From Cyanophora paradoxa CCMP329 (Eukaryota; Plantae; Glaucophyta): a DNA stretch of 64,000 nt. The translations under genes were made by a program, and so were the position numbers. Positions 1 to 34,153 of this stretch are shown here, one piece after another. The first letter of the stretch is position 1. Every line of letters begins with the position of its first letter. The notes below the pieces were generated by a model. That model was given only the letters and a program-made list of their open reading frames with translations. It did no database searches and had not been told where the DNA came from. The DNA lies in the NCBI GenBank assembly GCA_004431415.1, contig QPMI01000709.1, forward strand, positions 271,254 to 335,253, written 5' to 3'.

Positions 1-829
1 CCCGCGCCCGAATCGGAGCACTGGGAAACAACCTGTATTACATAGGGATTTAGAATATATAAGATGAGCTAGGGGTGCAGGGTTCTAGGGGGATGGTCAG
101 AGCGAGCCGAGGGCACCATGTGCCATCCACTGTAGTTTCATTCGAACTGGATATCTTTGGATGGGAATTAGTTATATTAGATCCAAATGTATCATGAGAA
201 CGACAATGAAAAGGGCGGATAGAATATATGCAACGGTCGGGACTCACAATTAAGCCTAACCTGTAAGTCGCCACAAAAACGTTCGTTGAGCTCACAAACC
301 TGACAACGGCACATCACACACATCTGACATCATGAAAACTGACCTCGACGGGTGACTCCACTACCACTCAAAAACAGCATTTATATTGCATATAAAGGCT
401 TTTAAAAGCCTCGTACATATCTGATTCATTGGGCAAAGTTTGTTGAAACGAGATTTCGGAAACAATTGCTGCTATGCCCTAACGTTAACATGACCCAACA
501 TGCACTGCGGGGGCCTGGAGGGTGCGGGCCTTCGCGCTCCGCATTGTTGGCGACGAGAGGCCCCCACGGGCAAGATTGCTAGAGGAGAAGGCGCTGCGCA
601 TCTCGCTCGAGGGGTACCGAGGCGTCTGGGAGACGGCGGCCCGAGGCAGGCGAGAGGGGCTCTTCGGAGGCTGGTGCGGGCCTGGAGGGTGCAGGTACGG
701 GAGGCCTGGAGCCTGGCACTCTCCCCCACAATCCTTTTACTTCTTGTGTAACACGTTCACACGGGTAGCGGCGGGTAGGGGGAGAGGGGCGGAGGGGGAG
801 GGGGGGAGAGGGGGAAGAGACAACAAACC

Positions 830-6057: not shown

Positions 6058-7314
6058 TTGGCATCTTTAATTTTAATCACGCGGCCATCAATTTCGCGCG
6101 GGCCTGCGCTGATCATGATCGCAATGTTTAATCGTGATCATCGGATGGTGATCATGACGCGAGCCGCGCGGGCGCGCGCGCATGCGCAGGATTCGCTGGG
6201 AGAGGTGACGGGCCGCATCGGCGCCCTCCAGATCCCGTCCTCGGAGGGCGAGGCCTCGGGGGCGGCCCGCTCCACGCCCGACGGCTCGCCCCACTCGAGC
6301 TCGGCCGCCGTTGATCGCGAGGCGGAAGGGGGGGTCGGAGGCTCGCGCTCGGGCTCGATTTCGGGCCCCGCGAGGCGATACTCGAACTCGAGCTCGAGCT
6401 CGAACGCGCCGCGGCCGCATGCGCGGCAGAGCCATGCCGAGGCGCATGCGTCTGGCCATGCATATGGCCATGGCCAGCAGCGCTCGATCGCGAGCTACAC
6501 CTACGGTCAGCGGCAAGAGCAGCACGAGCGAGCGTACAGTGAGCGGCGGCGGCCGCACTCGTTCGCCCAGTCTCCGTCGACCTCGGCTCGAGCTCGCAAT
6601 ATTAATCCACCCGGCGCCGGCGCCGGCGGATCCGGAGGCCCAGGGCGCGTGCAGGGCGCGGCCGCGGGTCCCTCGCAGCTGCAAGGTCACGGCCACGTGC
6701 ATGGCCAGTACTTGCAGCTCCGTGGGCACCCGTACCCCCATCTGCAGCTGCTCCCCGCGGCCGGGGCGGCCGTGGACGTGGACGGGACCGCGGCCGGCCT
6801 CCCCGTGGCCAGCGTCAACATCGTTGAGATTTCTCCGGGCGTCTACGGCTACGGTTACGGCCCCGCCCTGCAGCTGCAGGCCGCACCCGGTCAGAATTTG
6901 AATTTCCAGTCGTGCGTCTCATTTATTCCATTATGATATCGATTATACGATGATGACGATATCCATCGAATTTCCTCTCGTACATGCTAAAATGCCCTCG
7001 CATATATCAGTAAACATATTTGAACGTAATTAATGATTCATGATCAACGATTTTGCATGCGCAGGGATTATCTTCTGGCCTCGCAATTGCAGCCTTACGC
7101 CGTGGCGGGCCCTTCCGACGCGCAGGTCCGGATCCGACTCTCCCGGTCACAATCGGGGTCTATAGCTATAAATTAATGAATATTAACTAGTACTAGTAAT
7201 GTTCGAATTCAAAATCGTCCCCGGCCAGAACTGACTGGAGGGCATGTTAATGCGCAGGGGCCCGCCGGCGCCGCCCTGCAGCTGGTTATGGGACAGCAGT
7301 ACCCCGTGGAAATG
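6058..7314 (+). CDS. 5' part of a spliced host low-complexity (Gly/Ala/Gln-rich) gene, interrupted by the viral insertion
   Basis: ORF 6058-6936 plus short GC-rich exons between AT-richer GT..AG introns. The last exon 7258-7314 reads GPAGAALQLVMGQQYPVEM and ends in the TSD. The start codon is uncertain. Confidence 0.55.
7309..7314 (+). other. Left target-site duplication GAAATG
   Basis: The same hexamer lies immediately outside both TIR ends (7309-7314 and 34148-34153). Confidence 0.95.
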
Positions 7315-7409
7315 ACACATATTGAAAAACGAATTTAAATCCCTCGTTCATCTCGATCGCTTCGCGATCTCGATTCACTCTGGATTTAAATTCGTTTTTC
7401 AATATGTGT
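7315..7409 (-). other. Left terminal 95-nt hairpin
   Basis: 28-bp perfect arms (7315-7342 / 7382-7409), inner stem GATCGC-TTC-GCGATC, and symmetric 12-nt linkers. Confidence 0.95.
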
Positions 7410-7728
7410 TAATTTAATACTAAAATACATATTTTTCGATTAATTTCTTAAACTTTTTATGCAAACTTTGTATAAAATAATGCAAACTTTGTATTAAAAA
7501 TGAAAACGCGTTTACCAAAATGCATATTTTCGATTAAACTTCGATAGATTCAATTGATCTTATATCGATTGATTATGTACTTTGTTGTTTACATACAAAT
7601 CTGCGATAGATTAACATTAAACTGCTTAAAGATCGATATAATTGCGATTAAATTGCATAAATTCGCATAAACTCGATATATCTCTCATGTATTGAAGTAG
7701 ACCACCGCCCATTCTGTATCGAAAAACG

Positions 7729-7990
7729 CAAAAAGTGTCACAGAGTTGCATTGTGTCCAATTGAACAATCGATGAGATTGCTGATGTACATTTTTGCACC
7801 GAAAAAGTGTCACAGAGTTGCATTATCTCCCATTAAACAATCGATTAGATTGCGGGATTTTCTATTGGAATATATCGGAACTGCATTATGTCCAATTAAA
7901 CAATCGATGAGATTGCGGATTTATATTTTAGATCGAAAAAGTGTCACAGAGTTGCATGGTCTCCAATTGAACAATCGATTAGATTGCATA
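7729..7990. repeat. Sub-terminal ~60-72-bp degenerate tandem repeat (4 units) inside the TIR
   Basis: AAAAAGTGTCACAGAGTTGCAT...CCAATT(G/A)AACAATCGAT(G/T)AGATTGC is repeated, and mirrored at ~33475-33735. Confidence 0.85.
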
Positions 7991-8020
7991 TGTTCTATAA
8001 AACAGAATAATTGAATTCAA

Positions 8021-8580
8021 GTGTGACAGGTAGTATTCAAATGATATTCAGTAATAGATATATTTGTTTTTGAGAAAGTCAGTAAGAGGGGTAGAATGTC
8101 TGTGACAGGTGTGACAGGTGTGACAGGTGTGACAGGTGTTTTCAGAAGTCTGTCATTTTTGAAAAATTTAGAAAGTTTGAAAATAGGTGTCACACCTGTC
8201 ACACCTGTCACACTCAATTAAACTACCTGTCACACCTGGTCTCCTTACCATTTTCAGTAAGACAGAAAGGTATTCATGAAATCGACTATTGTTGGGTGGA
8301 TTTTGAAGGTGTCACACCTGTCACATAGACTGTTTTCAGTAAGACAACAATAAATTCTTGAATATCTCAGTAAGAAATAGAGTCTTTTGTTAATTGGGTG
8401 TGACGGGTGTGACAGGTGTGACAGGTGTTTTCAGAAGTCTGTAATTTGTGAGAATTTTAAAAAGTTTGAAAATAGGTGTCACACCTGTCACAGGCGTCAC
8501 AGTCAATTAAATAGGTGTCACACCCGATTATCTGACCATTTTCAGTAAGACCATCTGAAATTCTGAATTTCTCAGTGTCA
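8021..8580. repeat. Arrays of 9-bp TGTGAC(A/G)GG repeats in opposite orientations around AT-rich spacers (iteron-like)
   Basis: Cassettes at ~8101-8240 and ~8397-8527, mirrored in the right TIR at ~32945-33365. Confidence 0.85.
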
Positions 8581-8581
8581 A

Positions 8582-8983
8582 CTAACTCGGAAATCGCAAT
8601 ACTCTATGTTTCTCCGATTTCTCCAACCCTGAAAACACACCTGTTATTCTCTCATCTATCTCATGAGATACTCTCGTGGTTTTTCTCTCTGCTTCTAATC
8701 CACAACTGAATATATCAATCGCCAGCATACCTTCATTTGAGTAACAATGAGCAGTGCAGTGGCTCTCATCCAGCAGAAGAACCATTGCAAAACCAGGAGG
8801 AGAAATACCACCATCGAAAATCTCGCAATGCTTGTGAACTACTCGAATACCTTGCTCTTGAATAATAGTTTGTAAGAACTGCATTAACCACCTGGTCGTT
8901 GTCTCCAAGTCTTCCACTCCTACTGCTAATTGGGTTCTGAATTTGTAATCCAGCATCACATGGAAGCCTCGATGAGTATTCAT
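8582..8983 (-). CDS. speD: S-adenosylmethionine decarboxylase proenzyme, short prokaryotic/phage type (SpeD/SpeH-like)
   Basis: 133 aa. N-terminal G.H.MLD, PPG...V.LL.ESH self-cleavage site (E/S, pyruvoyl), HCY...G..AIDIFSCG. Confidence 0.88.
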   Translation of the reverse strand: MNTHRGFHVMLDYKFRTQLAVGVEDLETTTRWLMQFLQTIIQEQGIRVVHKHCEIFDGGISPPGFAMVLLLDESHCTAHCYSNEGMLAIDIFSCGLEAERKTTRVSHEIDERITGVFSGLEKSEKHRVLRFPS

Positions 8984-12600: not shown

Positions 12601-15600
12601 TTATGTGAGAATATTATTGTTTTGGAGAGGTCCGACAGCAATCCAATGGAGTTTAAGGGTGCGATTTGCTGCTGTGACATTTGTGAAATTAGTCGATGCG
12701 AAAGCTGTGAATCTAACGATCCATGTAAACTTAGTTTTTAGTCCTACTCTCTCATTATTAACATACTCAGGTCCGATATACACACAGTTGGTCATTTCCC
12801 AATTTACAGAGTTGTAGCTATTCTCGATAGAGGTAGTAATCACTGCATCACTATAAAATGGGGTAGAGAATACGACCGTTCCCGATAACTGAAAGGTCTC
12901 TCCTGCATTGTATATTCTATTTTCCAAAACTACATTCGCTGTCCCCTGTTGCACATATGCATTTGCATTCACATAATTACCGAAATTCGTAAGCAACTCT
13001 ATGCTGTGATTGTGAGTAGGTGGCGAAGTGGGTGTGTTAATTAAATCGTCATAGTTCCCGCTTGTAGCCACAGCATGCAAGTTTGGTGTATTAACGAGAT
13101 CATTATAGTTTCCACTTGTAGCCACAGCATGCAAGGTCGGTGCAGTAGGGGTGTTAGTTAAATCATTGTAGTCACCACTTGTAGCCACAGCATGCAAATT
13201 CGGTTTAGTAAATAGTCTATCCCATGTCCATTGAAAGGGAGTGTAGATTCTGATATAATTACACTTTGATCAATCCAACGAGGTATATAAGTGGTGAAAT
13301 CGGGAATTCTTGATAAATCATAGTAATCACCTGTGAATGCTACACTACTCCAAGTTGGCTTCTCCGTAATATCAGTCCATTTACCACTAAATCCTGCCGG
13401 GACATCTGTGAGTTCTTTGTAGCTCACCTTTTGCTTTGGTATGGAGAGTTCAATGGGCGAAAATGCACCTGAAAGGTAATTCTCAGAAGAGAAATACATG
13501 AGATTATGGCTGTTTGGGAACACATCCACAAGATTAAAGGTGAAATTCGTTGGTAATTCGACTCTACTAATTGGAGTGTTTGCATCTAATATATATTCAG
13601 CACCTGGGTGAACAACAGGAAATGTCTGAGCATTTGGAGTATCAACAAGGAAATTCGGAGCATGAACATCACCTGTGACAGTTCCACCAGTGAGAGGAAG
13701 GTAAGCACCCTCCACAGCAATTCCTGCGATGATTGTTGCTCCATTGTCTCTCAGATAATCCTCTGTTACCACTCTTGATATGGTCTCATTGTGAATATTC
13801 TTTGCTGCTGCCCTCTGATTAATTTCTAAAACTCCCTCACCAACTCCACCATTATAATTCGTTTTAATCCATGCAACCTCGCATTGTTTATAGTCATCTC
13901 GGTTCCCCAAAAGTGCATCTGGTAACAATCTCTCTCTGCTGAATATTAATTTCGGTCTTGATGAATCTAAATCACTCACATCAGTAACATTAATTTGGAT
14001 TGCTGCGTTTTTATCATCATAGTTTGCTGGATCAGATGGTAGAGAGATCAATCCTCCTGTCATTGGGATGTCATCTGCATAGTAGCTGGTAAGATAGATA
14101 CCTGGTTTGGTGTCTTTAATTTCAATACCACCACCAAGTCCCAATATTCCATTTCTTGTAGGGGTCTAATGTATAATTCGCCTTCCATTGTGGTGCCTGC
14201 ATCGATTCCTTTGCGATTCACATAGTAATCATTTAATTGTAATCTTTCTGGTGTGTCTATATTTTGGTAGAGACTTACCCCATTGTTAATATCTCCTAGT
14301 AAAACATTACCTGCTGATGCAAAAGTGGGCTGCTCTCGTATTTCGCTCCAAATATGTAAATGGTCTTCCGGCGGAAACTCAGGTGGTATTCCATCAATAT
14401 CGCCCCAATCATGCCTGTGATCTTCAGGTGGATATTTCTCAGGTTTACCTAAGATCTCATCCCAGTCATGGTTGTGATCCTCTGGTGGATATCTCGCGGG
14501 TTTATTGTTGATCTGCTCCCAGTCAAGGTACATCTCAAAAATCTCAGGTTGTAAACCATCTGGTAATAATTCTTCATGGGGTTCATATGGTTGCTCATAA
14601 TCAACAACTGGTGGTTCGTGACCATCTGCTAAATATTCCTCATGGGGTTCATAATTCTGCTCATATTCATACTCTTGTGGATCTAAACCATCTGGTAAAT
14701 ACTCTTCCTCATTGGGGTCATATTGATCATACTCATATTCCTGTGGGTCGAAACCATCAGGTAAATACTCTTCCTCATCTGGGACGAAGTAGTAATCATC
14801 AAGCTCCAAAATATCGATTTCAGGTGGTAGATACTGCTCATCAATCTGCTTTCTTGGTTCAATTATCGGTTTATTTCGAACCTGCTCCCAACTCACAATG
14901 TGTTGCCCAAAGGGAACTGTTTCATCTGCTGTATACTCTCTTCCTGGTTGCTTCTTGGGTGTTAAATCTGGTGGATCCCATGGAAGAGGGAAGGGAACTG
15001 GGAAAGGTCCATAATACTCAAAGATCTCTCTGATGGTCTTCTCACTTACAAGTTTCTCACCATTTGCATACACATTGCTTCCATGGATATTTCGCCATTG
15101 CCTGGTTCTGATACCAAGATCTTTGGTGTTGGTTACCAATGGTAAAAGGTGCCTATCCATTTCGACAAGGTCTGGGTGTAAATGAATTGTTACTGGTTGA
15201 GTGGGGCTACTGTTGACAGTGATAGACGCCTTATTCTTTGCTGTATCACCAGGTAATTGGAAACCGAATTGCGCATTAGAAGCCGAATTCGCCACAATAT
15301 CTCGTGGATAAACATTGTTAGTGAACTCGATTTTGTTGGTTTCTCCATGGGGGGCTATCTGTAATATTTCGGGAATTTGTGCAATTGCATTTGATCCTTC
15401 ATTATAGATTCTTAAACCACTCTGATGCCCACCCTTCTCATTTTGAACATTGAATATCAACCTTCCACTATCGAATCGAGTTGGAATATCTGGATGGGTT
15501 CCACTGGTTTTCAGTTTTCTTGGTCTGCTCCTGGTTGCTTTAATCTGGGCTACCTGATTCGATTTCACATTCCCCATGCTGAAAGCAACACTCACATCCT

Positions 15601-15842: not shown

Positions 15843-17384
15843 ATGCCCCTTCGTGTAATTCTCTCATTATCAGGTGGGGGAGCTCGTGGTATAATTATTA
15901 CGAGATTGCTAAAAGAAATCGAAACTCGAACAGGAAAAAGAGTAATAGACCTTGTTGACCTGGTGAGTGGAACATCCACTGGTGGGATAATTGCAATCGG
16001 TCTCAATGTGAAAAATCCCGAATTTCCAAACGAACCTAAACTCACTGCAACCGATTTGCATTCCACTTATCTCAACCAACTGCCTTTAATCTTTGCAAAT
16101 CCCAGAAATATTATTGATAATGCACTTTTCAACACCAAGTATGATGTGACCCCATTGGAGACAGCCATTCTCACTGTTACTGGTGAGTCTCTCATCCAAG
16201 ACTCTCTAAAAGATGTGGTGATCACAAGTTTTGATACTGTGAGTATGAAGCCCATCTTTATTACCAATGATAACTTCTACAAATCCATCCCCAGCAAGAT
16301 TGCTGCAAGATCCACCTCTGCTGCTCCTACTTACTTCTCACCTGTGAACTATGATGGGATGTCTCTAATTGATGGTGCAATCTCAGGTAATAACAATCCC
16401 AGTGTATGTGGTTACAGCCATGCTAAGAAGATCTATGATGATGATGATGATATAATTGTGATCAGTATATCCTGTGGTGAGGTTAATGAAACAGATGCCC
16501 CCAATGTGGGATATTCCTATGAAGATGTGAACAGCTGGGGTATCCTCTCTTGGATTGCTTCGACCTCTGGAAGTCCATTAATTAATATGTTGATGGCTGC
16601 AAGTGAACTCTCAGCCCTGGAAAAGATGCAAGAGTTTCTCCCATATAATGATGACCAGGGATATGCAAGATATTATAGACTCTCTGTCCCACTTCCAAAG
16701 ACCATAGTAAACTCTCTGGATGATACCTCTAAGATCCCTGATATGATAGATGCAACCGAAATGTATATAGCAGCAAACACAGTCATGATTGATAGACTCT
16801 GTGATTTACTGGTTGCAAATTATGAAATCAAGAACCCTGCAAGGTTCTATATATCATCAACTCTGAATAACATGCCTCCCATTGATGCTAACTGGTATCT
16901 TCTATCAGATGGTGCATTCACTGCATCATCATCAAAAATTGGAAGGGAGGCATTTAAAGCAAGACCTTCATTAACTGGTTGGGAGGCAAATGCATCTGCT
17001 CCTGATGGGATATGGAGTGTTCCCACTGAGTATCTGCAAGTATCCTTCCCATATATATTTGAGGTAGCATCTATAATTGCATATGGTTCTGGTGTGACCA
17101 ATGCCTTTGTTAAAACCTTCAATGTTGCAACATCACAAGATGGTGTTTCCTGGTCATTTATCAAGTATGAAGGTGTGAATAGAGTGTTTATGTGTGAAAC
17201 AATTAATAATGCCCACAACAGTGGTGATGTCTCATACAGTTCTGGGTATCCCACCTCTATAAGAGACGTTTTCTATATTGGCTACCCTCTGAGGACAAGG
17301 TATATTCGTATTTATCCACTGGTATATATAAATACCCCAACAATGAGAGTGGATGTCACAGGTGCATTTATTCGAAGTGCATAG
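15843..17384 (+). CDS. Patatin-like phospholipase fused to a C-terminal discoidin (F5/8 type C) domain
   Basis: GGGARG oxyanion loop, GTSTG nucleophile, SAAPTYF and DGA catalytic Asp; C-terminal W.A, EYLQV, S.DG..W and RYIRIYP......MRV discoidin motifs. Confidence 0.88.
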   Translation: MPLRVILSLSGGGARGIIITRLLKEIETRTGKRVIDLVDLVSGTSTGGIIAIGLNVKNPEFPNEPKLTATDLHSTYLNQLPLIFANPRNIIDNALFNTKYDVTPLETAILTVTGESLIQDSLKDVVITSFDTVSMKPIFITNDNFYKSIPSKIAARSTSAAPTYFSPVNYDGMSLIDGAISGNNNPSVCGYSHAKKIYDDDDDIIVISISCGEVNETDAPNVGYSYEDVNSWGILSWIASTSGSPLINMLMAASELSALEKMQEFLPYNDDQGYARYYRLSVPLPKTIVNSLDDTSKIPDMIDATEMYIAANTVMIDRLCDLLVANYEIKNPARFYISSTLNNMPPIDANWYLLSDGAFTASSSKIGREAFKARPSLTGWEANASAPDGIWSVPTEYLQVSFPYIFEVASIIAYGSGVTNAFVKTFNVATSQDGVSWSFIKYEGVNRVFMCETINNAHNSGDVSYSSGYPTSIRDVFYIGYPLRTRYIRIYPLVYINTPTMRVDVTGAFIRSA

Positions 17385-17691: not shown

Positions 17692-18346
17692 CGCGAACCG
17701 TCAAGTATATATGCACATATATACATTTTGACCACAAAATAGCGGATTGGTCGGTCGGCGACTCGGAGGTTCGATGTCACACGAAAAGTATGGTGTAGAT
17801 ATGGTGTATATATGTTGCACTCTTTCGGAGGTAATGACTTATTGTTGATATAGATATCAGTTATGACTCATTGTTGAGGTAGATATCCGAAGACGACTCA
17901 TTGTTGATATAGATATCAACAATTAGTCATAACCGGAGTCTTTCATCAATAGGGAAGCCAGAGTTTAGTATCGAATACAACAATCATAGATGTCTGCATC
18001 TGGAAATTCTATCTGCATCATCAAAAAGTCTTCTGCAATCTATCAGCCTCAACAACAATTCATAAGTTCTATCAGCCTCAAAACTCATTAATATTTTCTA
18101 TCAGCCTCAACAATCATGTACATCATCGCTATCGAATACAACTTCCATTGATGTTTTGTATCAAATACAACAATCATTACAAGATTGATGTCCAGAGGGA
18201 GCCCAGGAAATCCAACAGACAACTTTCGACATATATACCGCATATATACACAAAACCTCCGTAATCTCGGTTTGGTCAAACGGAATTTCTGGTAAAAAAG
18301 TGTATATATGTATATATATATATGCATATATACTTGACGGTTCGCG
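17692..18346. repeat. Internal island bounded by inverted repeats, containing short tandem repeats
   Basis: A perfect 24-bp IR (17692-17715 / 18323-18346) extends degenerately inward. Internal repeats are GACT(C/T)ATTGTTGA..TAGATATC x3 and TATCAGCCTCAA x3. Confidence 0.75.
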
Positions 18347-18778: not shown

Positions 18779-20177
18779 CTATTTCCTCTGCCCACTTCGT
18801 AAATTGAAGCGAGTTTGGGGTGCAGTATATGTTTCCTTGGTGGTTGAAAAGTCATTATACCATCTCTGACTGTTAACTTCTGATAATTTCTGGGTTCCTG
18901 CTATGGTCAACTTCTTTAATTCTTTCTCTACTCTGCCTTCTTTTGTGCTCTTGCTTCTGTGAGGGGCTCTTTTGGTACTTCACTTGCTTTTTCTATGCCC
19001 TCCTTTCTGATTGCTGAATCAACCCTGGCTTCCTCTTTTGCCTGTTCAAGGGCATCCACTGTGGGGGTTTCATGATACTCAACACCTTTGATGGGCAGCA
19101 GTTCATGAAAAGCGAATCTACCATCAACTATCTCACCACTGGGGCTTCTGATTCTGAACTTGAAGCCCTCTCTTCCCTCTACACTATAAACAATTCGAGA
19201 CCAATTCACTCCCTGCTTTGCAAATGGGTTCTTTTCAACTTTCACTCTCACAAACATTCCAGGTTTCAGAGCATCGAGATACTCAATCGATTTCTTGAAT
19301 CTCTGATCCTCCATACTCACAATCTCTTTGTAGTGGGCTTCTGTGGTTTCTGCTGGTTTTCTCTTGGTTGCAGAGTGAATGGTGTTATTATAATTATACT
19401 CAATGTCACCCAACACATCAAAAAATCGTGCAGTATTATTTGCAATGCAGTAGTTTGTGATCAATCTCTTGATCTGCCTGTTAAAGGCTTCAATCCGACC
19501 TTGGGTTCTGTGATCTGCAACATCACTTAGTTGATGCTCAATGAATTTCGTTCCCAAATAATCTGTGAATAACACATTGGTAAATTCGCTTCCACTATCA
19601 CTCTGAATGCGAACAATAGGTCTGGGACTCTCTGTTCAAGTTGCTTGAATGCTGCAAGTGTAGTAAGAGCACTTTTGTCTCTCATTGGAATAATGAACCC
19701 TGTTCTCAGGGTTGACTCCATTGCACTCATAAATGTATCATAACCATCATTCTGCTTTTTGTATGCAGGAAAGAAGAGCAGATCAATCACATAGGTATCA
19801 AGGGGTTGCCTAATTAGAATCATGGGATCTCTCTTTCGAGATAGGGTGGGTGCATTAATTTGGACAACCTCCTGCTTATCATACCATTCTCTCATCTTCT
19901 TGTAGTTCTCCTCTGGTAGTTCCTGTCTCATTGCAGTAAATCCCTTGTAGCCTGTCCTGGGATCATAGAACTTCTTAGCAATCTTTGACTCTTTTGGTGC
20001 TGTCTCAGCTGGGAGTGTCTCTGGGATTAATTGCTTGACCATCTCTGATCTTTTTAATATTCGACTGCTCTTCTCCTCCACTGGAACTGTGATGGGCAGA
20101 ATATTCCCTCGATCTTCAATTGCTTCTTTTCTAACAATTCTGGGTGGTTGTCTCAATCCTATTTGTGTAGAAGGCAT
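18779..20177 (-). CDS. Retroviral-type (rve, DDE) integrase of the Polinton type, with frameshifts
   Basis: IDLL..., then QSDSGSEF after a one-base shift at ~19625, then GRIEAFNRQIK and YNNTIHS..KRKP. A second shift in an A-run at ~18940 extends the C-terminus to ~18779. Consistent with the 6-bp TSD. Confidence 0.9.
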
Positions 20178-20360
20178 CTTTACCTTATCTCTCATATAAT
20201 AAATGCAAGAGTCTGTGTGGAAGGAGAACACAATTCCCAACTATTTTGCAATCGAGCCCAATGATCCAGGATTAAGATGTATATGGCTGCTGCATTTAAT
20301 TCGCGGTTTATTACTTCTTGGAGAGCGAAACCAAAGAAAAAGAAAGATTGATGAAGTAGA

Positions 20361-23300
20361 TTAGAGCCCAAATGGAATGCTGTGAATTCCATCGTCTAAT
20401 ATCTTCCTTTTGCTATCGAGTTGGTTTAGAGCCACCCTTCTGCTCTCCAAATCATATAGGTTGTGGTCTTGTCTTCGCTTGTTTACTACTGCTACTGTTT
20501 TGGTGATTCCTTCAAACAAGCATCTTTTGAAATCATCAAAGTGAACCTCTTTGGAGGAAGTCCCAGACATTTTTATTTTATCAAAGGTCTCAGTTCTGAA
20601 AGCATAGAGTTTCGATCTCAGACCTACATACTCCACAATCTTTGCATTGGGAAACTCGTTTTTATATTTACCTGGAATCAAGCGATTTCTCCTGTCATAG
20701 AGAGGGTGGGCAGTATCATAATTACTGCAATCCAGGTGTTCAGAAATTCGCTTCATCTCATTATTTAGATCATTTGTATGCAGCAGGAGACAGAAAGAAT
20801 CTGTATCATGGAATAGTAGCTCTGCTGTTTCCCAAGTTCTCCTCACCACATCATAAAAGAACCTGCTATTATGGAGTTTCGCGAAATCCAGCACAAAAGC
20901 ACCAATTGCAACAGGTTTATCTAAGTGAACATGCTTGGAATACATCTCAAAGGCAACAGCATTTTCGTTTAATACATTGGTTGCCTTGATGAGTGGACTT
21001 GCAGCATATTTCTTGCAGAGTTTCTCACTGTTAGCAATCTTAACCACAGAGCGACCCCTGCATGATTCGAGGCATTTACCATAGATTGCATTGTTCATTA
21101 ATTTAAAGAAGTCACTCTCGAATCTGGACATAGATTGGCGCCTCAGTTTCGTATTTAGATCAATATAACTCTTCATAAATGCAGAGGTTGCAAATGAGAG
21201 AACCCTGTGAACCTTCGTGATTATAATACCTTTGCTCACAAGATAGACCAAGAGAGGTTGGGAGATCACATAGTTGTTTTTGGGTGTGAATGTTGCTGTG
21301 AGTTTGGGGTCTTTGCTTATCTTCTCACCTGTGATATCCAGTAGTTTTCGTTGATACTCACCCAGCATTTCGGTGGTGACATGTTCTTTATTAACTACAA
21401 GTGGAAAATCATAATGATCTGTGAGAGTGTGTGGGTATTCCAGGTCTACTTCAATAAAGGCACTTCGTCCTGGGGTCTCTTTAAGTGCCTCTGAGACATC
21501 TTCCCATCGAAAATCTCCAATGGGCAGTTCTTGACTGAGAGCAAAACCATACAGATTATTTGCATCCAAGAGAACTATATGGTCATCTGGGTTTTCCACC
21601 TTTGCATATCGAGTAGGCATTGTAGCAAACCCACCTCGAATTGCCCTCTCAATAAATTCGTATTGCCCTACATCACTGATCTGCTCAATCTTTGCTCTGG
21701 TGTAAATGAGCATTGCATCCCAGGATAATCCAGGAGCCGAAACATAGTGGGCAGGATCCAATCCATATTGGGAAAACGCCAATTCTCGGAATGTCTGGAA
21801 TTTACCCATTAGATCACTTGCATCCACTGCCTGGAAGTCCATGAAGTGCGAAGCATCTATGAATTTCCACATGCCCCATTGCAGGGAGAGGTATTGGTCG
21901 AAATTTTTGCTCAGAATCTCAACACGAAGTTTATCATCTTGCTGTGCAATTTTGCGGAATATTTCGTGTCCACATTCATCCATGTGATCCACCACAATTG
22001 CTACTTTGGTTTGCTTTGAGATTCTCCTGTGGAGGTTGCAGTTTCGGCATGCTTTTCCAATAAAAGCTCCTGATTGATGACAATGGTCTCTCACTGGGAA
22101 ATTCTCATGGGTAAATCGTTCAGCACAGATATAACAGTGTTTAGTGATCTTGTATTGTGCTTTCTGCTCCTCTGTGAGTGGATGCATGGGAATATTGGTG
22201 AATAGAGTGCGAATTACTTGGGGTCTGATCTCTGTGAGAGTGGTAAACAGAGCACCAAGGGGATCTGATCCATCAAAATAATGAGAGATCACCTCATCCC
22301 CCATCACAACTGTTAGAGAAACCGATTTTACCTCTCTCTTACTGCGGTTCTCATCAATTGGAACCGAGTGACTATCCATTTTCACATAGCAGATAGCGGG
22401 AAGCCACACAGTTTTGCGAAGGTGTTGCAGACCAAATGCAATGTGACTTCCAGATTTCGGGCATTTACCTTTGCTCTCCCTCCAATCAATGCAGCGATTC
22501 GCTTCTATATGTACATCCAGCTTCTCCTGAGTTCTGAAACGAGACAGACAGGTCTCACAGTAATAAATGCGACCATCATGGGCTTTATCAAAGGTGGTTT
22601 TCAGAAGTCTACTCAGAGACATGATGGTGATATAATGCCCTCTATCATCCTCTTCGTTTTCGATTAATAAAAGGTTAATCTTGGTCTTTCTCCTGGGGTT
22701 GCTGGATTGGTGGAGAGGATAGAAACACTGTGCAGTATTATCTGCCCATAAATGTTGATACTCAGTTCAGGGTTCTGCTCCTCAAATCGATCAATCACCT
22801 CTGCATCACAGGCAACTGGAAATTGGATGCCCTCGAAATTGAGTTCGTTCAACCATCTTCTATACTGGCTGGGTTCATTGCTCTTGTGTTTATTAATATC
22901 ATTTCGGTGCAGGTAAGCCAAGATTGCATACTTGAAGCAGTCTTGACCATCAATATTCTTCACATTCACAGTTGCTCTCTTTAATCCAATCCACTCAGGT
23001 GTTGAGAAGAAGCAACCACCCACAGGAGCATAGGACATTATTACTACTCTGAGCATCTCAATGCGATCCAGTCTGTAACTGTCAACTTGCATCATCTGCT
23101 CCTGCATGGATTGAAGGGCATTTCGCAGTTCAACATCAATATTTCGTGATCTTGTGATGACAAAGTAATCACTGTAAATGAATTTGGTGATCCACACCCT
23201 TGGATCACTCACTTTGGTGAATTTACAAATGAAGGTCAACCGAGTCTTAATTGCTCTCAGGTCTTGGAGTTTCTGTCTGAGTCTCTGAGGTAGAGTGGGT

Positions 23301-23641
23301 GCAATTCTCTCCAAGAATTCAATCCCATCTTGGATAACCTCCCCTCTTGCTCGATAGGTTAACCAAGAATATGCTTTGTTCATTGCTTCCCCATCCTCAA
23401 TCTCGGGTTCAATTGTTCCCAACCTTAAACCTTCATCCCTGAATTCCTCCATTTTCTCAAAACGATCATAGAGGCGATTTGTAATTTCTGTGAGTTGAGA
23501 TAACCTTGGTCTCCTATCCAAGATTGCTGCCTGGCGATCATATTCGAATTCTGTAATATCACCAGTAACTAAAAGGGTTCCTAAAAGACCGAGTATTTCG
23601 TTTTTCTTCTCTTTGATGATTCTATTGGATTGGCGGGGCAT
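20361..23641 (-). CDS. polB: Protein-primed family B DNA polymerase (pPolB); one frameshift at ~22745
   Basis: Motif A DANNLYG, motif B KLMNNAIYGK, motif C DTDS, and KLY. Also LDPAHY..APGLSWDAML, an endonuclease VII-like VRDHCH..G..C..CN insert, and the N-terminal CF.YAIL / LNF.GI.FP / INLLLI..HY Polinton region. Confidence 0.93.
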
Positions 23642-24032: not shown

Positions 24033-24180
24033 TTAATTGGGTGTGACGGGTGTGACAGGTGTGACACCTATTTTCAAACTTTTTAAACTTTTTAAAAATC
24101 CTCAGACTCCTGAAAACACCTGTCACACCTGTCACACCCGTCACAGTCAATTAAAATACCTGTCACACCTGTCACACAAA
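24033..24180. repeat. Internal copy of the TGTGAC(A/G)GG iteron-like cassette, candidate replication origin
   Basis: Three units, an AT-rich spacer (TATTTTCAAACTTTTTAAA), then inverted units; closely similar to the TIR cassettes; ~60 bp past the helicase stop codon. Confidence 0.75.
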
Positions 24181-24243
24181 CCATTTACAGTAAGGGTTTT
24201 AAAAAATTAGAAATTCACAGTATAAGTATTGATTCCGTTTTAT

Positions 24244-26607
24244 TTACTCATCCCCAACCTCCTCATCACTGTCATCCATCAATCTGCGACCATGCTTCTT
24301 TATGATCCCAAAGTAACCACGGCAAAGTACACCATTCACTCGTTTTCTGTCAGAGTTCACATTAAAGACTTCGCGAAGTCTCTTCATAATGGTGCAATCT
24401 GAGATTTTCTCATCAGATTTGCCCATGTGGTCTCTCTTGAAGTCACTCATGATGGACTCACTTGTAGTGAAATCGCCTTGACTCTTGGTGAGTTCATAAT
24501 TCTCTCGAATCCACTCTCCAATCTTGTCATTCTCATTGAAATACTCCATACCTTGATCAACAATGGACTGGGGAGGTTTGGTGACGAATGTATTGAGAGA
24601 ATGGGTTCTCCACATTTCCAGGAGAATGGACATATGCGCCATTTTATAATCGTCATCATTCTTCATTAGGCGCATTAGAGTGGTGTCTGCTTTCTTCTCA
24701 CCAGGCTGAGGATCGACCTTGAAGACATTTTCGAATCGGTAGTAGATAATTCGCCTTTGGATTGCTGCATCTGGTTTACTGATTCCCAGGTTGTCATTTG
24801 TGGACAAGAACAACTGGAACATGGGAATGAATGTAACAAGATCTTTGAAAAGAGCTCGAACCTTCATCTCATTCCCACCAGTAACCTGTTTGATTTTGTT
24901 CAGTTGAAGCATATCACCATCTTCTGCTTCATTACTGAAAACAATTCGTTTACCAAGAATGCAAGCGAGTTCTGGGGAAGCCTCTGACGAACTCTTCTTG
25001 GGTTTAGTCCAATATGTCATGTCCAGTGACCCATAATACTCACCAAATGTGTCTTTCACCAACTCTTGGAGCAGTGATTTCCCATTTGCTCCAATTCCAG
25101 TCCAGCAAGTGTATCTCTGATTTTCTGTCAAACCACTCAGGGCATAGGCGATTAATCCCAGCATGAATTCGCGGTCTGTATCCGATTCAATAATATCTGC
25201 ATAGATGGATTTAATCTTTGCAACCTTCTCTTGGTCAATTTCTGTGGTGTAATCGTAGCCAACAGTCTTACTCACCATATCATATGGGAGTCCCTGTCGA
25301 AAAGTCATGGAGTTCAAGTCAAATACACCATTTGTGAACCCAATGATGTTGGGAACAGTATCAAGTCTCTCGAAAAAGGTCTTGTCACTGAACAGAACTG
25401 AAAGATCAGACATAAGTGCAGTTCTGTATGTAGTCTGTTTGAGGCTCTTAGCAATTCCCAGCAGAATCTTTGACCTTTCCTCCAAGGAATTGCGGTTCTC
25501 TTCATCACGAAGAGCTCTCTGTGCGAGTTGAACAGAACGTTGAAGATAAACTGGACAGACCTTGCAGCTCAAACAGAGAAAGATTCGCTTCCCAGTTTCA
25601 TCCATCTCCCAAATCCCACATACATCATTGAACTTGAACCAGGTCTTGTTGGAATACTTGTATTTGTCTTGCAGAACAAGATAGGCAACCTGTGCAACAT
25701 CATAATGGGCACCATCAGATCCAGCAGACCGATCAATCAGATTTTCGATATTCGCATCTGTCTCTTCCTTCACACGAATTGTGATAAGTCGCTTCTTGCA
25801 GTTTGCACTGTAACTCGAAACAATGTACTTGTCTTTCTCCTTTCCTTGAATAATATACCAATTGTTCGAGTCATGGCTTCCCTTGCAGCAGGGACAGATC
25901 AGACCTTTGTTCTCAGCAGTGAAATTGTATCCCATCTTGGTCTCATTGATGATTGTGGGCAAGATGAAATCGAATTCTTCCAGTTTAGCAAGAATATGTT
26001 TCTGCAAATTCTCCTCAGCGCACCTTGCATAATAAGAATGTGCACCTTTGGGGAATTCGTAGTTTTCAACAATCCACTTTTGCAACTCAGCAGTGGGTTC
26101 ATTTAACTCACACTCAGATGCCCATGGCTCTCTGATCCATGTTTTGTTGGGACTGGGACAAACATTAATTACCCCAGCAGTCCCAGTGGATGCAATCGTT
26201 TTGCAGTCGATCTTGGGGTTTCCTTTGAATGCACCTGCTTTATCCCAGATCTTAATGGTGTCGAATTCAGCAGGTCGAGCGAAGAATGCATGATATCCTT
26301 TTTTGGTTTTAGCAAGAGGATTAACACCACCGAAATCATCAGGGAATTGCTCCTCGAATTTGGCGAAATCCTCCTCTTGGTCGAAGTCAATTACCAGGAT
26401 ATTACGAGCGAGAATGCCCCAAGCAGTATATTTACCGGATTTCAGGGCTTCATCGAATTTATCCCAAGACCAGGTTCCGTCTTTATGAGCGAAAAGTGGC
26501 TTTTTGGTATCAGGATCAACAGGAATAACGATATTCTCAGACAGGACATCGTCTTCACGAAGCCATTCAACAAGGCGTTTCAGGGATTTCTTGGCGGCAG
26601 CGTTCAT
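24244..26607 (-). CDS. Primase-polymerase (Prim-Pol) + Zn finger + D5-like SF3 helicase fusion
   Basis: VIDFD and T.KGYH.FF primase motifs, CPCC..SH...C, D5_N-like IGFTNGVFDL, Walker A GIGANGKS, Walker B FSNE, motif C LSTN and arginine finger RRI. Confidence 0.9.
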   Translation of the reverse strand: MNAAAKKSLKRLVEWLREDDVLSENIVIPVDPDTKKPLFAHKDGTWSWDKFDEALKSGKYTAWGILARNILVIDFDQEEDFAKFEEQFPDDFGGVNPLAKTKKGYHAFFARPAEFDTIKIWDKAGAFKGNPKIDCKTIASTGTAGVINVCPSPNKTWIREPWASECELNEPTAELQKWIVENYEFPKGAHSYYARCAEENLQKHILAKLEEFDFILPTIINETKMGYNFTAENKGLICPCCKGSHDSNNWYIIQGKEKDKYIVSSYSANCKKRLITIRVKEETDANIENLIDRSAGSDGAHYDVAQVAYLVLQDKYKYSNKTWFKFNDVCGIWEMDETGKRIFLCLSCKVCPVYLQRSVQLAQRALRDEENRNSLEERSKILLGIAKSLKQTTYRTALMSDLSVLFSDKTFFERLDTVPNIIGFTNGVFDLNSMTFRQGLPYDMVSKTVGYDYTTEIDQEKVAKIKSIYADIIESDTDREFMLGLIAYALSGLTENQRYTCWTGIGANGKSLLQELVKDTFGEYYGSLDMTYWTKPKKSSSEASPELACILGKRIVFSNEAEDGDMLQLNKIKQVTGGNEMKVRALFKDLVTFIPMFQLFLSTNDNLGISKPDAAIQRRIIYYRFENVFKVDPQPGEKKADTTLMRLMKNDDDYKMAHMSILLEMWRTHSLNTFVTKPPQSIVDQGMEYFNENDKIGEWIRENYELTKSQGDFTTSESIMSDFKRDHMGKSDEKISDCTIMKRLREVFNVNSDRKRVNGVLCRGYFGIIKKHGRRLMDDSDEEVGDE

Positions 26608-28277: not shown

Positions 28278-29036
28278 TCAGTTTATTCGAATGAACACCA
28301 CTCTTGACCTCTTTGGGGCTTCCTCTTTCTGTGGAGGTGGTAGTTCGTCCTCTTTCTTTTTGGGCTTCCTGTGGAACCGAGGAAATGGGAAATCTTTGAC
28401 CAGATCCGCTTTATCAACATAATAGTTCACCGAATAATTCGCAGAAGACCACACAATATATTGGTAGGAGTGTACATACTCCTCAAACATCTTATAGAAA
28501 TCGTCCTTGTTTCGCATGATATTGTACTCCTCTTCAATGGCTTCGAGTTCTTTGCGATTTGCAGCACTCAGGAACACAGCATAATCCGAATTTACTCGAA
28601 TTGTTGAAGAAACCTTACGCAATTTCTGAGTTATGCAGAAAATTGTAATCGAGGAATGGCGGCCGCGCGAATACAGAGAGCCAATAATTTTATCACGAGT
28701 AAGGTCTACAATCTCATTATCTATTAAATCATCAAGGACAATACACAATTGGTTAACTGGCTCGCCCTTTTCTATTTTCTCTTGCCTTTCATCCAGTAAT
28801 TTGGAAATGTAAGCAGCATCCCATTTTCCCAGTTGCAGTGTTGCGACATCATCCCAAAAATGATTGAAACTCGTCCCACTTATAACAAGAACAACATCTA
28901 ATTTTTTCGCATCATGCAGCTGTTTCAACCAATATTTCACACATTCTGACTTGCCTGTTGCAGACTTTCCTATGAAAAGAGCACGAAATGGTGGGTTAAT
29001 CATTTCACCTGCATTAAACTCCTCTAAGTCGTTCAT
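28278..29036 (-). CDS. A32-like (FtsK/HerA) genome-packaging ATPase
   Basis: Walker A GKSATGKS, Walker B IVLDD, RGRH..I......Q and IR.NSDY. Confidence 0.92.
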   Translation of the reverse strand: MNDLEEFNAGEMINPPFRALFIGKSATGKSECVKYWLKQLHDAKKLDVVLVISGTSFNHFWDDVATLQLGKWDAAYISKLLDERQEKIEKGEPVNQLCIVLDDLIDNEIVDLTRDKIIGSLYSRGRHSSITIFCITQKLRKVSSTIRVNSDYAVFLSAANRKELEAIEEEYNIMRNKDDFYKMFEEYVHSYQYIVWSSANYSVNYYVDKADLVKDFPFPRFHRKPKKKEDELPPPQKEEAPKRSRVVFIRIN

Positions 29037-29098: not shown

Positions 29099-30472
29099 TT
29101 AGAGATTGATTCGCCTTAAACCATCTTTGTCAACAATAATGAAACTGTGCATGAGAGCACGAACATTAACTGTGATTGTCTGGTCAGAAGGCATGTATAG
29201 AGTAAGGAAAGAAGAGGAGGAGTTCGTGAGATCAACATAGCCAGACTGGGCAATGTTGCGAATCGCTTTCTCTCCATCAACACAGAATGGTAGACCACTG
29301 AGGACATATTTGTCTGCAACCTTGTCCATATTCGAGCACTTGAAGGCATCCGCAATTAATTCGGCACCTTTGAGGAGAGGAATTGGCTCAGTAGCATAGA
29401 GACGTTGACCATTAATTTCAACAGTGAAAGTAATGTCTTTTGAGTTAGCATGCGTTTTTAGGACACTGTGGGAACCATTGAAACCATCAATACCTGCGGC
29501 ATCACGAACTGAAACAAGAAGACCATAGACAAGACCAGAGATCTGTGACAGGTTAATACGATTTGGTTGAGCATTGCCTTTTGCAGCAAAATTGACACTG
29601 TCAACAAAACCAATATCCAGAGCAGGAATAGCCATACCAGTGGTCTTCACCTTCTCAATGACAGTAGCAAACAGTTCATCAGAAACATTAATAGCATGCA
29701 TGTAAAGACGAGGAGAAGTGACTTTAATTTCGGGGGTTGTTGTTGCACCAATTCCAAAAGTGGTGATTTGTTGACCAACATGGGCAAGAGTAGCATTAGC
29801 AGTAGCACCAAGTCCATCATCCTCTGTCTTATCAGCAGCTGTTCCACCAACAACAGGAAGAGCACGACCACCATAAGAAGTCTCAACATAACCCTTTCCA
29901 GCATCCTTGAACCAGACAGTTACCACCATTTCTCCTGAGAGAGCACCAAGAGGTAGGTAGTGGTTTAGCCATGGGACTGGGATTTCAGTGAAAAATGACC
30001 CACCAAGTCGGTTGGTTCCATGGGCAGGGATACCATGAACCATTCCCATTGAACGCTTCTTCTTGGCGAGTTGATCCTCACTGTAATAGATAAGAGGGAA
30101 ATGAGCAAGGAAATCAGAAGGCACATGGAAGGTGTAAGATCCATAGGTAATTTCAAGTCGAGAGACAAGAGCACCAACTGGGCGAACGTATCCATTGCGA
30201 ACAAGGTCGGTATCACCAGCAAAAGTGACAGCTGGAAGGTCAAACGCAAGTTCGAGTTTTCCACAGAAATTGTAGCGAGGGAGCTTGAAAGAAATGCGAT
30301 TTCCAGCATTATTCTCGAAAGTGTTGCTTGGGTTCACAACAACAAGAACTGGCTTCGACTTGGATTCAAGACCAAGCATGAGAGAGTTGTCCAAGAAGAA
30401 CGCCTTGGCTTCTTCCGGGGTTGTTAGAGCTTCTTTCAGAGAAAGACGTTGGAGGGTCGAAGTAATATCCAT
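29099..30472 (-). CDS. Double-jelly-roll major capsid protein (PLV-type)
   Basis: ~457 aa, beta-rich, with G..ISFKLPR....G.L.L.F.LP N-terminal pattern; lies between the ATPase and a penton. Likely start is MDITS. Confidence 0.75.
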   Translation of the reverse strand: MDITSTLQRLSLKEALTTPEEAKAFFLDNSLMLGLESKSKPVLVVVNPSNTFENNAGNRISFKLPRYNFCGKLELAFDLPAVTFAGDTDLVRNGYVRPVGALVSRLEITYGSYTFHVPSDFLAHFPLIYYSEDQLAKKKRSMGMVHGIPAHGTNRLGGSFFTEIPVPWLNHYLPLGALSGEMVVTVWFKDAGKGYVETSYGGRALPVVGGTAADKTEDDGLGATANATLAHVGQQITTFGIGATTTPEIKVTSPRLYMHAINVSDELFATVIEKVKTTGMAIPALDIGFVDSVNFAAKGNAQPNRINLSQISGLVYGLLVSVRDAAGIDGFNGSHSVLKTHANSKDITFTVEINGQRLYATEPIPLLKGAELIADAFKCSNMDKVADKYVLSGLPFCVDGEKAIRNIAQSGYVDLTNSSSSFLTLYMPSDQTITVNVRALMHSFIIVDKDGLRRINL

Positions 30473-30526: not shown

Positions 30527-31537
30527 TTACGCAAAATTCGCAATAACCGGATAAGATGGATGTGTTTCCGCCATTCTCCTCTTGAAGTATTCGTACACAG
30601 GATCACCAGCAGGTTCATCACCATATCGAATTTCGAAGGTGAGGTGGACAGGTTGACCCTCGAAATCAATTGGTTCATTAACTGCATTCACAATATCAAC
30701 CGAAAATGTGGAAAGTCCCAGATTCTTGTTATAGTATTTATAAATCGGATGGGCTTCTGTCGAATTATAAACGACATGCTCACCATAATCTTTATCTGGA
30801 ACAACGATTTTGTGGAAATATCCAGTGAGGAGACCATCACCACATTGAACCAGATCACCCAACTCCTTTACTCTCACAAACAGAACACTATCCCTGGTCT
30901 TTTCAGGTTCAAATGAAGATATGATACCATGCACCATCGACCCAGTAAAGATACCATCAGTCAGAGTATTATAAACTTGTGATTGGATTGGGGTGTTACC
31001 ATATCTCCCAGGATCAAGACCAAGCAGTCGAGCAGAACTCAAAAACCTCTGAATCTGCGCCTGGGTTGGGTTTATTGCAGTTGAGAAAGCCAGGTAAAAC
31101 GGTATGGTGGAATGGAATATTACTCGTTTCAGTGTATCATCCCATTTACAGCGAATTGCTACTGGTGGCTCTCTCAATGCAAGTTTGGAGTTAATTACAT
31201 TCACCAGTTGTTGGTGGTTTTGAATGGGTGTGCTGCGACTTATCACAATGTGCTTCCATTGCTCATAATCGGCAGCAGGTCGATCAGTTGGAATACCAGT
31301 GCTTCCTGCACCAGAATAATATTCAGACCAATAAAGGTAGATTGCATTATCTATTGTCACATCTCCTACTTTGGTTTCACCACTCACCATGGGAATGCTG
31401 TTATAGAATTCTGCTGAAACCAGTCTTACTGCTCTCACAAATTCATAGGTGCTTGGGAGGCGAGCAATAAAACTCGAAGTTGGTCCATCTCCCGAAATTG
31501 TATTGAAAGAGCTCACTTCGATGTAATCCACAGGCAT
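30527..31537 (-). CDS. Minor capsid protein (penton) 1
   Basis: I.V.S.......S.F...LP......V..V.L.SAE..NS at the N-terminus and IDFEG.....TFEI at the C-terminus. Confidence 0.75.
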   Translation of the reverse strand: MPVDYIEVSSFNTISGDGPTSSFIARLPSTYEFVRAVRLVSAEFYNSIPMVSGETKVGDVTIDNAIYLYWSEYYSGAGSTGIPTDRPAADYEQWKHIVISRSTPIQNHQQLVNVINSKLALREPPVAIRCKWDDTLKRVIFHSTIPFYLAFSTAINPTQAQIQRFLSSARLLGLDPGRYGNTPIQSQVYNTLTDGIFTGSMVHGIISSFEPEKTRDSVLFVRVKELGDLVQCGDGLLTGYFHKIVVPDKDYGEHVVYNSTEAHPIYKYYNKNLGLSTFSVDIVNAVNEPIDFEGQPVHLTFEIRYGDEPAGDPVYEYFKRRMAETHPSYPVIANFA

Positions 31538-32794: not shown

Positions 32795-34147
32795 ACGAGA
32801 GTATCTCATGAGATAGATGAGAGAATAACAGGTGTGTTTTCAGGGTTGGAGAAATCGGAGAAACATAGAGTATTGCGATTTCCGAGTTAGTTGACACTGA
32901 GAAATTCAGAATTTCAGATGGTCTTACTGAAAATGGTCAGATAATCGGGTGTGACACCTATTTAATTGACTGTGACGCCTGTGACAGGTGTGACACCTAT
33001 TTTCAAACTTTTTAAAATTCTCACAAATTACAGACTTCTGAAAACACCTGTCACACCTGTCACACCCGTCACACCCAATTAACAAAAGACTCTATTTCTT
33101 ACTGAGATATTCAAGAATTTATTGTTGTCTTACTGAAAACAGTCTATGTGACAGGTGTGACACCTTCAAAATCCACCCAACAATAGTCGATTTCATGAAT
33201 ACCTTTCTGTCTTACTGAAAATGGTAAGGAGACCAGGTGTGACAGGTAGTTTAATTGAGTGTGACAGGTGTGACAGGTGTGACACCTATTTTCAAACTTT
33301 CTAAATTTTTCAAAAATGACAGACTTCTGAAAACACCTGTCACACCTGTCACACCTGTCACAGACATTCTACCCTCTTACTGACTTTCTCAAAAACAAAT
33401 ATATCTATTACTGAATATCATTTGAATACTACCTGTCACACTTGAATTCAATTATTCTGTTTTATAGAACATATGCAATCTAATCGATTGTTCAATTGGA
33501 GACCATGCAACTCTGTGACACTTTTTCGATCTAAAATATAAATCCGCAATCTCATCGATTGTTTAATTGGACATAATGCAGTTCCGATATATTCCAATAG
33601 AAAATCCCGCAATCTAATCGATTGTTTAATGGGAGATAATGCAACTCTGTGACACTTTTTCGGTGCAAAAATGTACATCAGCAATCTCATCGATTGTTCA
33701 ATTGGACACAATGCAACTCTGTGACACTTTTTGCGTTTTTCGATACAGAATGGGCGGTGGTCTACTTCAATACATGAGAGATATATCGAGTTTATGCGAA
33801 TTTATGCAATTTAATCGCAATTATATCGATCTTTAAGCAGTTTAATGTTAATCTATCGCAGATTTGTATGTAAACAACAAAGTACATAATCAATCGATAT
33901 AAGATCAATTGAATCTATCGAAGTTTAATCGAAAATATGCATTTTGGTAAACGCGTTTTCATTTTTAATACAAAGTTTGCATTATTTTATACAAAGTTTG
34001 CATAAAAAGTTTAAGAAATTAATCGAAAAATATGTATTTTAGTATTAAATTAACACATATTGAAAAACGAATTTAAATCCAGAGTGAATCGAGATCGCGA
34101 AGCGATCGAGATGAACGAGGGATTTAAATTCGTTTTTCAATATGTGT
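32795..34147 (-). repeat. Right terminal inverted repeat (1353 bp)
   Basis: Reverse complement of 7315-8677. Confidence 0.95.
34053..34147 (+). other. Right terminal 95-nt hairpin (G.A-paired strand)
   Basis: Arms 34053-34080 / 34120-34147, linkers AGAGTGAATCGA / GAGATGAACGAG, and cap GATCGC-GAA-GCGATC. Confidence 0.95.
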
Positions 34148-34153
34148 GAAATG
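34148..34153 (+). other. Right target-site duplication GAAATG
   Basis: Matches 7309-7314. Confidence 0.95.

Follow-up and report, generated by a model that had tools for sequence, protein, structure and literature searches.

An analogue of the virus described here is phage N15, which is linear and hairpin-ended and has a P4-like primase-helicase. In the replication origin of the staphylococcal pathogenicity islands (SaPI), as far as the accessible part of the source goes, iterons lie in opposite orientation about an AT-rich centre immediately downstream of rep and are bound by a C-terminal winged helix (PMC9371898). In phage P4 a winged-helix domain binds the origin repeats, the alpha protein having a Toprim primase, and for pRN1 ORF904 the available portion of the same account states that specific binding to its origin was not seen (PMC4234260). 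For C962R of African swine fever virus (ASFV) the text, in its accessible sections, leaves direct DNA binding unclear (PMC10516667). Among Polinton-like viruses (PLVs), Barth et al. proposed the terminal inverted repeats (TIRs) as primase-helicase origins, modelled the replacement of PolB by a helicase and described in Gezel-14T a repeat of >300 bp that occurs in the TIR and after the end module (PMC11296320, available part). AEP-SF3 fusions are described as frequent in cryptophyte PLVs (PMC12220804, in part), and a 2026 preprint describes pPolB and D5 in one element with palindromic ends and states that the replication mode of most Polinton-like viruses is unknown (bioRxiv 10.64898/2026.07.28.741278). 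Our search of the literature on Polinton-like viruses and virophages, which left most subscription papers outside, found no description of iteron origins.

The window (the whole 64,000-nt stretch of DNA that was analysed) contains a Polinton-like virus of 26.8 kb (~27 kb, 7315-34147) integrated in a single-celled eukaryote. Its boundaries and principal genes are as follows (features without a strand are given by coordinates only).

7309..7314, plus strand: left target-site duplication, 6 bp, GAAATG
7315..8677: left TIR, ~1.36 kb
7315..7408: left terminal 94-nt imperfect palindrome, -32.4 kcal/mol, z -12
18928..20195, minus strand: retroviral-type (rve) integrase with one frame break near 19623; foamy-virus integrase match, E 2.6e-6, in the second half
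20361..23641, minus strand: Polinton-type pPolB with one frame break near 22744; motifs A/B/C intact, exonuclease I/II lost
24244..26607, minus strand: Prim-Pol / D5-type SF3 primase-helicase, 787 aa, intact ORF
28278..29036, minus strand: A32-type packaging ATPase, Pox_A32 E 6e-10
29099..30472, minus strand: major capsid protein, 457 aa; Atlas capsid clusters score 0.98, of low recognition value
32795..34147: right TIR, with the terminal palindrome at its end
34054-34147: right terminal palindrome
34148..34153, plus strand: right target-site duplication, 6 bp

The element has what is expected of a Polinton-like virus, namely a PLV-size capsid protein, an A32 ATPase, TIRs, a target-site duplication, a length within 14-40 kb and a shift in GC content from the host (~40% in the element versus 47-89% in the host flanks, from the composition along the window). 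The TIRs are ~1.36 kb each, and left and right differ by one base and one 9-bp unit. The 94-nt palindromes are present at both ends, in keeping with the hairpin ends of the original prediction; they are possibly the hairpin ends of the genome. By the strict Maverick/Polinton definition, pPolB and rve integrase are both present, each gene split once in the window, and the proofreading exonuclease motifs of pPolB are missing. The capsid protein is 59% identical to a EukProt protein labelled Cyanophora paradoxa; the Pfam scan of 25 ORFs gave no match for it, no cysteine protease and no tyrosine recombinase. The ORF at 30527-31537, also lacking a Pfam match, has the size and position of a minor capsid (penton) protein. 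Numerous variant contigs from DNA runs of one organism map to the element (read depth is not copy number), so that we regard it as a multi-copy family. The extremes of cumulative G-C skew fall within the TIRs; we set this aside as evidence, because the skew tracks the one-sided orientation of the genes.

Other parts of the element and its surroundings can be described briefly. The sole long plus-strand gene (15843-17384) fuses a patatin-like phospholipase to an F5/8 type C domain. An S-adenosylmethionine decarboxylase gene on the minus strand (8582-8983, Pfam E 6e-11) has its 3' end inside the left TIR and this end is duplicated in the right TIR. A fibre-like ORF with a weak C1q match (11569-12579, minus strand) looks like a segment swappable among copies, since short-read contig joints occur across 11.4-12.2 kb. 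Three 29-nt units in tandem occur twice (17834-17918 and 18039-18117), their cores being roughly inverse to each other, in the gene-poor 17.4-18.5 kb stretch, which is variable between copies; they may form a second protein-binding array. Each TIR has three ~70-nt repeats (7730-7987 and 33469-33732) that start with the iteron core TGTCACA in another context, and the host DNA at 720-3354 is a tandem array of ~13 copies of a GC-rich unit of 198-200 bp.

The exact 9-mer TGTGACAGG occurs in 29 copies in the window where 0.28 are expected, a count that none of 100 shuffles reaches. Twelve copies are in the left TIR, 11 in the right TIR, five in an internal block and one stands alone at 29544 in the capsid gene. 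They build a cassette of three 9-bp units, a core of 54-55 bp (71-72% AT) and three inverse units, and a scan of the whole element for this architecture returned five cassettes only, two per TIR and one internal.

8101..8234: left TIR outer iteron cassette, 4+3 units
8390..8524: left TIR inner iteron cassette
24033..24152: internal cassette and candidate origin; three 9-bp units, 55-bp AT-rich core, three inverse units
24153..24194: two extra units (to 24177) and an ACCATTTwCAGTAAG motif that also lies beside the TIR cassettes
32948..33082: right TIR inner iteron cassette
33238..33362: right TIR outer iteron cassette, 3+3 units

The internal cassette reads (TGTGACAGG)x3, a 55-bp core and the inverse x3, and its core is 71% AT, where the element interior has 59%. 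From the helicase stop at 24244 to its first unit there are 67 nt, and thus the predicted position of the sole internal cassette, directly behind the stop of the Prim-Pol/D5 helicase, is confirmed by the element-wide scan. The join between cassette and helicase gene is not an assembly artefact, since a single short-read contig bridges 24116-24384 with one difference from the window. In the same organism another variant of the helicase, with 27 differences in 226 nt, likewise runs on into repeat units.

The product of the helicase gene matches D5_N and DUF5906 in Pfam, with Prim-Pol just below the cut-off (22.3 versus 22.8 bits). Across 98 aligned relatives the AEP residues D74, D76, H106 and D134 are conserved, as are Walker A (G504-K510), E560 and N604 of the helicase. 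An alignment-based structure model (pLDDT 87.8, versus 34 from the single sequence; residues 202-279 of low confidence) has its best fold matches in vaccinia D5 (Z 30.9), ASFV C962R (Z 25.9) and the SaPI5 primase-helicase (7ola, Z 25.3), and the N-terminus is modelled as pRN1-like (pRN1 Prim-Pol, Z 12.5). The C-terminus is predicted to be a winged helix of the P4/RFX type.

24286..24534, minus strand: predicted C-terminal winged-helix domain, residues 692-774, from the structure model

In the model these residues match RFX (1dp7, Z 10.0, rmsd 2.0, 75 aligned) and the P4 origin-binding domain (1ka8, rmsd 2.8, 76 aligned, at a Z of 7.0, in the range that the tool calls common); a C-terminal profile matches phage P4-type C-termini with a probability of 97.7%, compared with 0.1% for the reversed control. 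Of the claim that the helicase C-terminus binds the iterons, the part that holds is thus the predicted domain with its likeness to P4 and RFX, and the binding itself is a plausible role for it.

The closest protein to the helicase is 38% identical, no close relative for which DNA exists turned up, and the nearest relatives among IMG/VR viral contigs are giant-virus D5 genes (26-33% identity, E 1e-43 to 1e-61). The best phage matches reach 24-26% identity at E ~1e-14, on an E scale not comparable with that of the giant-virus values. In a quick ML tree of 56 rows (unrooted, without L009 and L018 and with no one-clade test) the helicase falls inside a 45-row eukaryotic-virus group with an SH-aLRT of 95, apart from the phage rows. 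This tree position and the phage matches of 24-26% do not place it within the phage or satellite P4-type helicases. A bacterial-satellite donor is not supported, because the helicase nests among eukaryotic-virus D5 proteins; the original prediction of a satellite-phage-like replicon, with helicase and origin acquired as one module, finds no support as to a satellite-phage source. The cassette is better read as an old cis-partner of the helicase family, since the helicase belongs to the eukaryotic-virus D5 lineage. Single-protein locus scans with the helicase and with the capsid protein found no relatives in viral contigs.

How does this locus compare with the known systems? Like SaPI/P4-type replicons, it combines a primase-SF3 helicase, with a C-terminal winged helix in the model, with opposed iterons, at least two per side, that flank an AT-rich centre directly behind the gene. 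The likeness to SaPI (SaPI5 PriRep/Rep) extends to the fusion of primase and SF3 helicase, the winged helix, the opposed downstream iterons and the AT-rich centre, and the predicted SaPI-like layout agrees with the origin as characterised in the available part of PMC9371898. Unlike SaPI, this is a eukaryotic virus with a capsid, A32 ATPase, pPolB and rve integrase, and it has five cassettes (four in the TIRs), a 9-bp period and a helicase of the eukaryotic-virus D5 lineage. With phage P4 alpha it shares, in the model, the winged-helix origin-binding domain; the primase differs, an AEP Prim-Pol here and Toprim there, as P4 alpha is presented in the accessible text. Poxvirus D5 and ASFV C962R are the best fold matches and giant-virus D5 proteins also end in the winged-helix domain found in the window helicase, yet the giant-virus genes tested have no downstream array and another type of AEP domain. 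The end modules of PLVs and virophages (Gezel-14T, entomopoxvirus PLVs, Halocafeteria elements) resemble the locus, as far as their available descriptions go, in the proposed TIR origins, the repeat in TIR and after the module (Gezel-14T), the presence of both pPolB and D5 and the palindromic termini; those descriptions do not name iterons or an origin architecture. A further difference is the interior position of the helicase in our element, 8-16 kb from the TIRs. The 'short repeat arrays' in the accessible part of the PMC11296320 supplement (2 of 9 rows) are 80-nt AT-rich units, unlike the iterons of the cassette.

By analogy with these replicons, we read the five repeat blocks as replication origins recognised by the virus's own primase-helicase, with a probability of roughly 0.65. 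In analogy to SaPI Rep, the winged helices would dock two helicase hexamers onto the opposed 9-bp iterons and the hexamers would melt the 55-bp AT-rich core; the Prim-Pol domain would then prime both forks. The pPolB, with its polymerase motifs kept and its exonuclease motifs lost, would not initiate from a protein primer but would carry out elongation. Hairpin formation would allow the palindromic ends to be closed or copied, and insertion of the genome, with its 6-bp target-site duplication, would fall to the rve integrase. The pPolB had been called eroded, and this is right for proofreading: in comparison with 6 homologs the Exo I and II residues are absent and ~110 aa are deleted. It is not right for the polymerase, whose motifs A/B/C are intact. 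The frame breaks of pPolB and integrase, one in each and at a short homopolymer, appear peculiar to this copy or its assembly, because at the pPolB break contigs from three DNA runs show, at full depth, a single-base difference from the window, and the integrase break gives the same picture; both frames are probably open in other copies.

The repeat is not confined to this virus. Viral contigs gave 103 stretches with a 16-mer of the repeat, 80 with flanks and 56 independent (23 two-way, 33 one-way); the full cassette pattern had 0 matches there. When primase-helicase genes with a 3' end within -400 to +800 nt of the array are counted, 13 of the 23 two-way phage loci have one versus 3 of 33 one-way controls (p 1.9e-4), and at 10 of 23 none ends nearby. 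The genes belong to VapE, D5/DUF5906, DUF927, AAA_25 and DUF3987, which we take to be primase-helicase families. In bacterial genomes a primase-helicase gene is found at 5 of 10 two-way loci, plus one primase, versus 0 of 20 one-way loci; two of these five are probably the same elements as viral-contig loci, since their Pfam scores are identical. The phage and bacterial counts together make the exact repeat a common partner of primase-helicases in prokaryotic elements. Two-way TGTGAC arrays in other phage contigs (L003, L026, L061 and others) lie near terminase genes with no helicase end adjoining; they are possibly origins set apart from the gene, or packaging sites.

Eukaryotic viruses were searched with a sequence-free array detector, in a sample mostly of giant viruses with few PLVs. 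It found arrays (score at least 5) behind 3 of 103 eukaryotic-virus helicases versus 0 of 968 other ORFs (p 8.7e-4), L190 having been shifted from controls to helicases post hoc on its Pfam result (otherwise 2 of 102 versus 1 of 969, p 0.025); the other 100 of the 103 have no array. The GC filter of the detector was tightened after a false positive, L137, whose array passed the first version and turned out to be coding sequence and tandem repeat. Each positive has its own repeat, GACGGCC in L124, CTATC in L187 and TGAGT in L190 (shuffles reaching the score: 0, 0 and 1 of 500), and no eukaryotic-virus relative among the loci scanned shares the repeat of the window. L124 is a 16-kb contig with A32 ATPase and GIY-YIG genes; L187 and L190 belong to the Prim-Pol subfamily of the window helicase, and their repeats, of other sequence, retain an 8-10 bp period. 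A finding that related elements lack such repeats would have told against the original prediction, and it holds for part of them: four of six independent loci of the same Prim-Pol subfamily fail the detector (L184, L193, L194 and L199, the last with just 270 nt downstream), as does the virophage locus L179, and giant-virus D5 genes have a downstream array in 0 of 74 cases at a score of at least 6. Weak repeat hints seen by eye in L179, L193, L194 and L199 were not counted. The window-type Prim-Pol subfamily occurs in 1 of 80 loci, the AEP domain of giant viruses being otherwise of another type. Judged from sequence, the link between helicase and array is real but not obligatory; the cassette would have been kept in some small mobile viruses and be absent from the giant-virus genes tested. 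At L187 a second opposed array of TACGGCA (12615-12850, 3 + 9 units) lies ~230 nt behind the helicase stop, and a T5orf172 gene is directly upstream of the helicase. L184 and L185 are both ends of one 50-kb contig with a same-subfamily primase-helicase at the identical position in each, which points either to an inverted repeat of great length or to a contig folded back in assembly.

The cassette might instead act as an origin of the stem-loop (cruciform) kind that has been proposed for pRN1 and phage BIP-1, in which structure and not iteron sequence is recognised and GTG triplets are maybe priming sites. We consider this unlikely, though it has more to it than the other alternatives. As available accounts describe them, ORF904 of pRN1 and BIP-1 resemble our locus in having Prim-Pol, SF3 and winged helix and a ~100-nt stem-loop 3' of the gene; pRN1 requires its 100-nt stem-loop and its primase starts at GTG, of which our cassette has 6 and 11 on its two strands (PMC4234260, accessible part). 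Folding of the internal cassette gives an uninterrupted stem of 25 bp with 6 bp more (-41.3 kcal/mol, z -11.2), a variant unit in one arm has its counterpart in the other, and the N-terminus of the helicase is pRN1-like, as noted. However, inverted iterons fold well by construction, and a stem has no need of tandem 9-bp units or of lone units outside it (8022, 8226, 8317, 24159-24176). The same source makes GTG dispensable in pRN1, which, in contrast to the tandem units and multiple copies found here, has no iterons in the available description; L187 and L190, moreover, differ in repeat sequence and keep the period.

Slightly less probable still is that the blocks are transcription-control, termination or packaging/resolution sites for another viral or host protein, their position reflecting the gap between helicase and pPolB. 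The internal block does sit within the stretch that separates the helicase 3' end from the beginning of the pPolB reading frames, the blocks of the left TIR come after the 3' end of a different minus-strand gene and share the CAGTAAG flank, and the phage arrays near terminase genes with no helicase ending there would fit as well. Such sites leave unexplained why arrays are enriched behind primase-helicases of unrelated families, in phages and bacteria as well as in eukaryotic viruses, with 0 of 968 other ORFs having one at a score of at least 5.

The origin was also predicted to have been copied into the TIRs. Of this, common ancestry stands: aligned over 113-122 nt, the internal cassette has an identity of 88.5-91% to the four TIR cassettes, and as the identity extends through the core the five share ancestry. 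The copies are compatible with either direction of copying. The outer flanks of the internal cassette are of the left-TIR type in the same orientation (one side agrees in 35 of 35 nt, the other has the CAGTAAG motif), and its core matches the TIR core only in reverse, for which an inversion between the arms is the simplest inference. Recombination between inverted arms is likely to have flipped the internal core and would keep the copies alike. That the internal block is a non-functional TIR relic of a rearrangement (an old genome end), with only the TIR copies working or with purely hairpin- or protein-primed terminal replication, is very improbable: left-TIR-type flanks, inverted core, terminal palindromes, a pPolB with intact polymerase motifs and the Gezel-14T repeat, described in the accessible part of PMC11296320 as a sign of module mobility, agree with it, but the match to the TIR is confined to the cassette and ~40 nt of flank, both helicase variants run into repeats, and the arrays of L124, L187 and L190 adjoin the helicase with no second array of the same repeat in the sequence examined.

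The cassette is real and non-random and makes a credible origin, which would be a variation on a known replicon type in a new setting. What sets it apart is that it is present five times, that its internal copy has the core inverted, that bacterial elements have the same repeat and that the element's pPolB is without proofreading motifs. A wider proposal, tentative and in our estimate rather doubtful, is that small eukaryotic DNA viruses keep a satellite-type iteron origin as a portable module of helicase and origin, the repeat changing with the helicase. This virus would then be a stable hybrid with a hairpin-ended genome, in which the origin was amplified into both TIRs and the proofreading-less pPolB, once a protein-primed initiator, was reduced to elongation in the wake of a self-loading primase-helicase. 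PLV TIRs have so far been proposed as origins without a defined site in the available part of PMC11296320. The element offers a 120-bp candidate origin, a likely 85-residue binding domain and a multi-copy family, on which direct binding, swap and replication assays can be performed. An opposed tandem array just behind a D5 gene can serve as a search rule, which may separate mobile from core viral D5 helicases. If the hybrid reading is true, Polinton-like viruses would gain a sequence-defined, testable origin, and this virus would be a living intermediate of replicon replacement.
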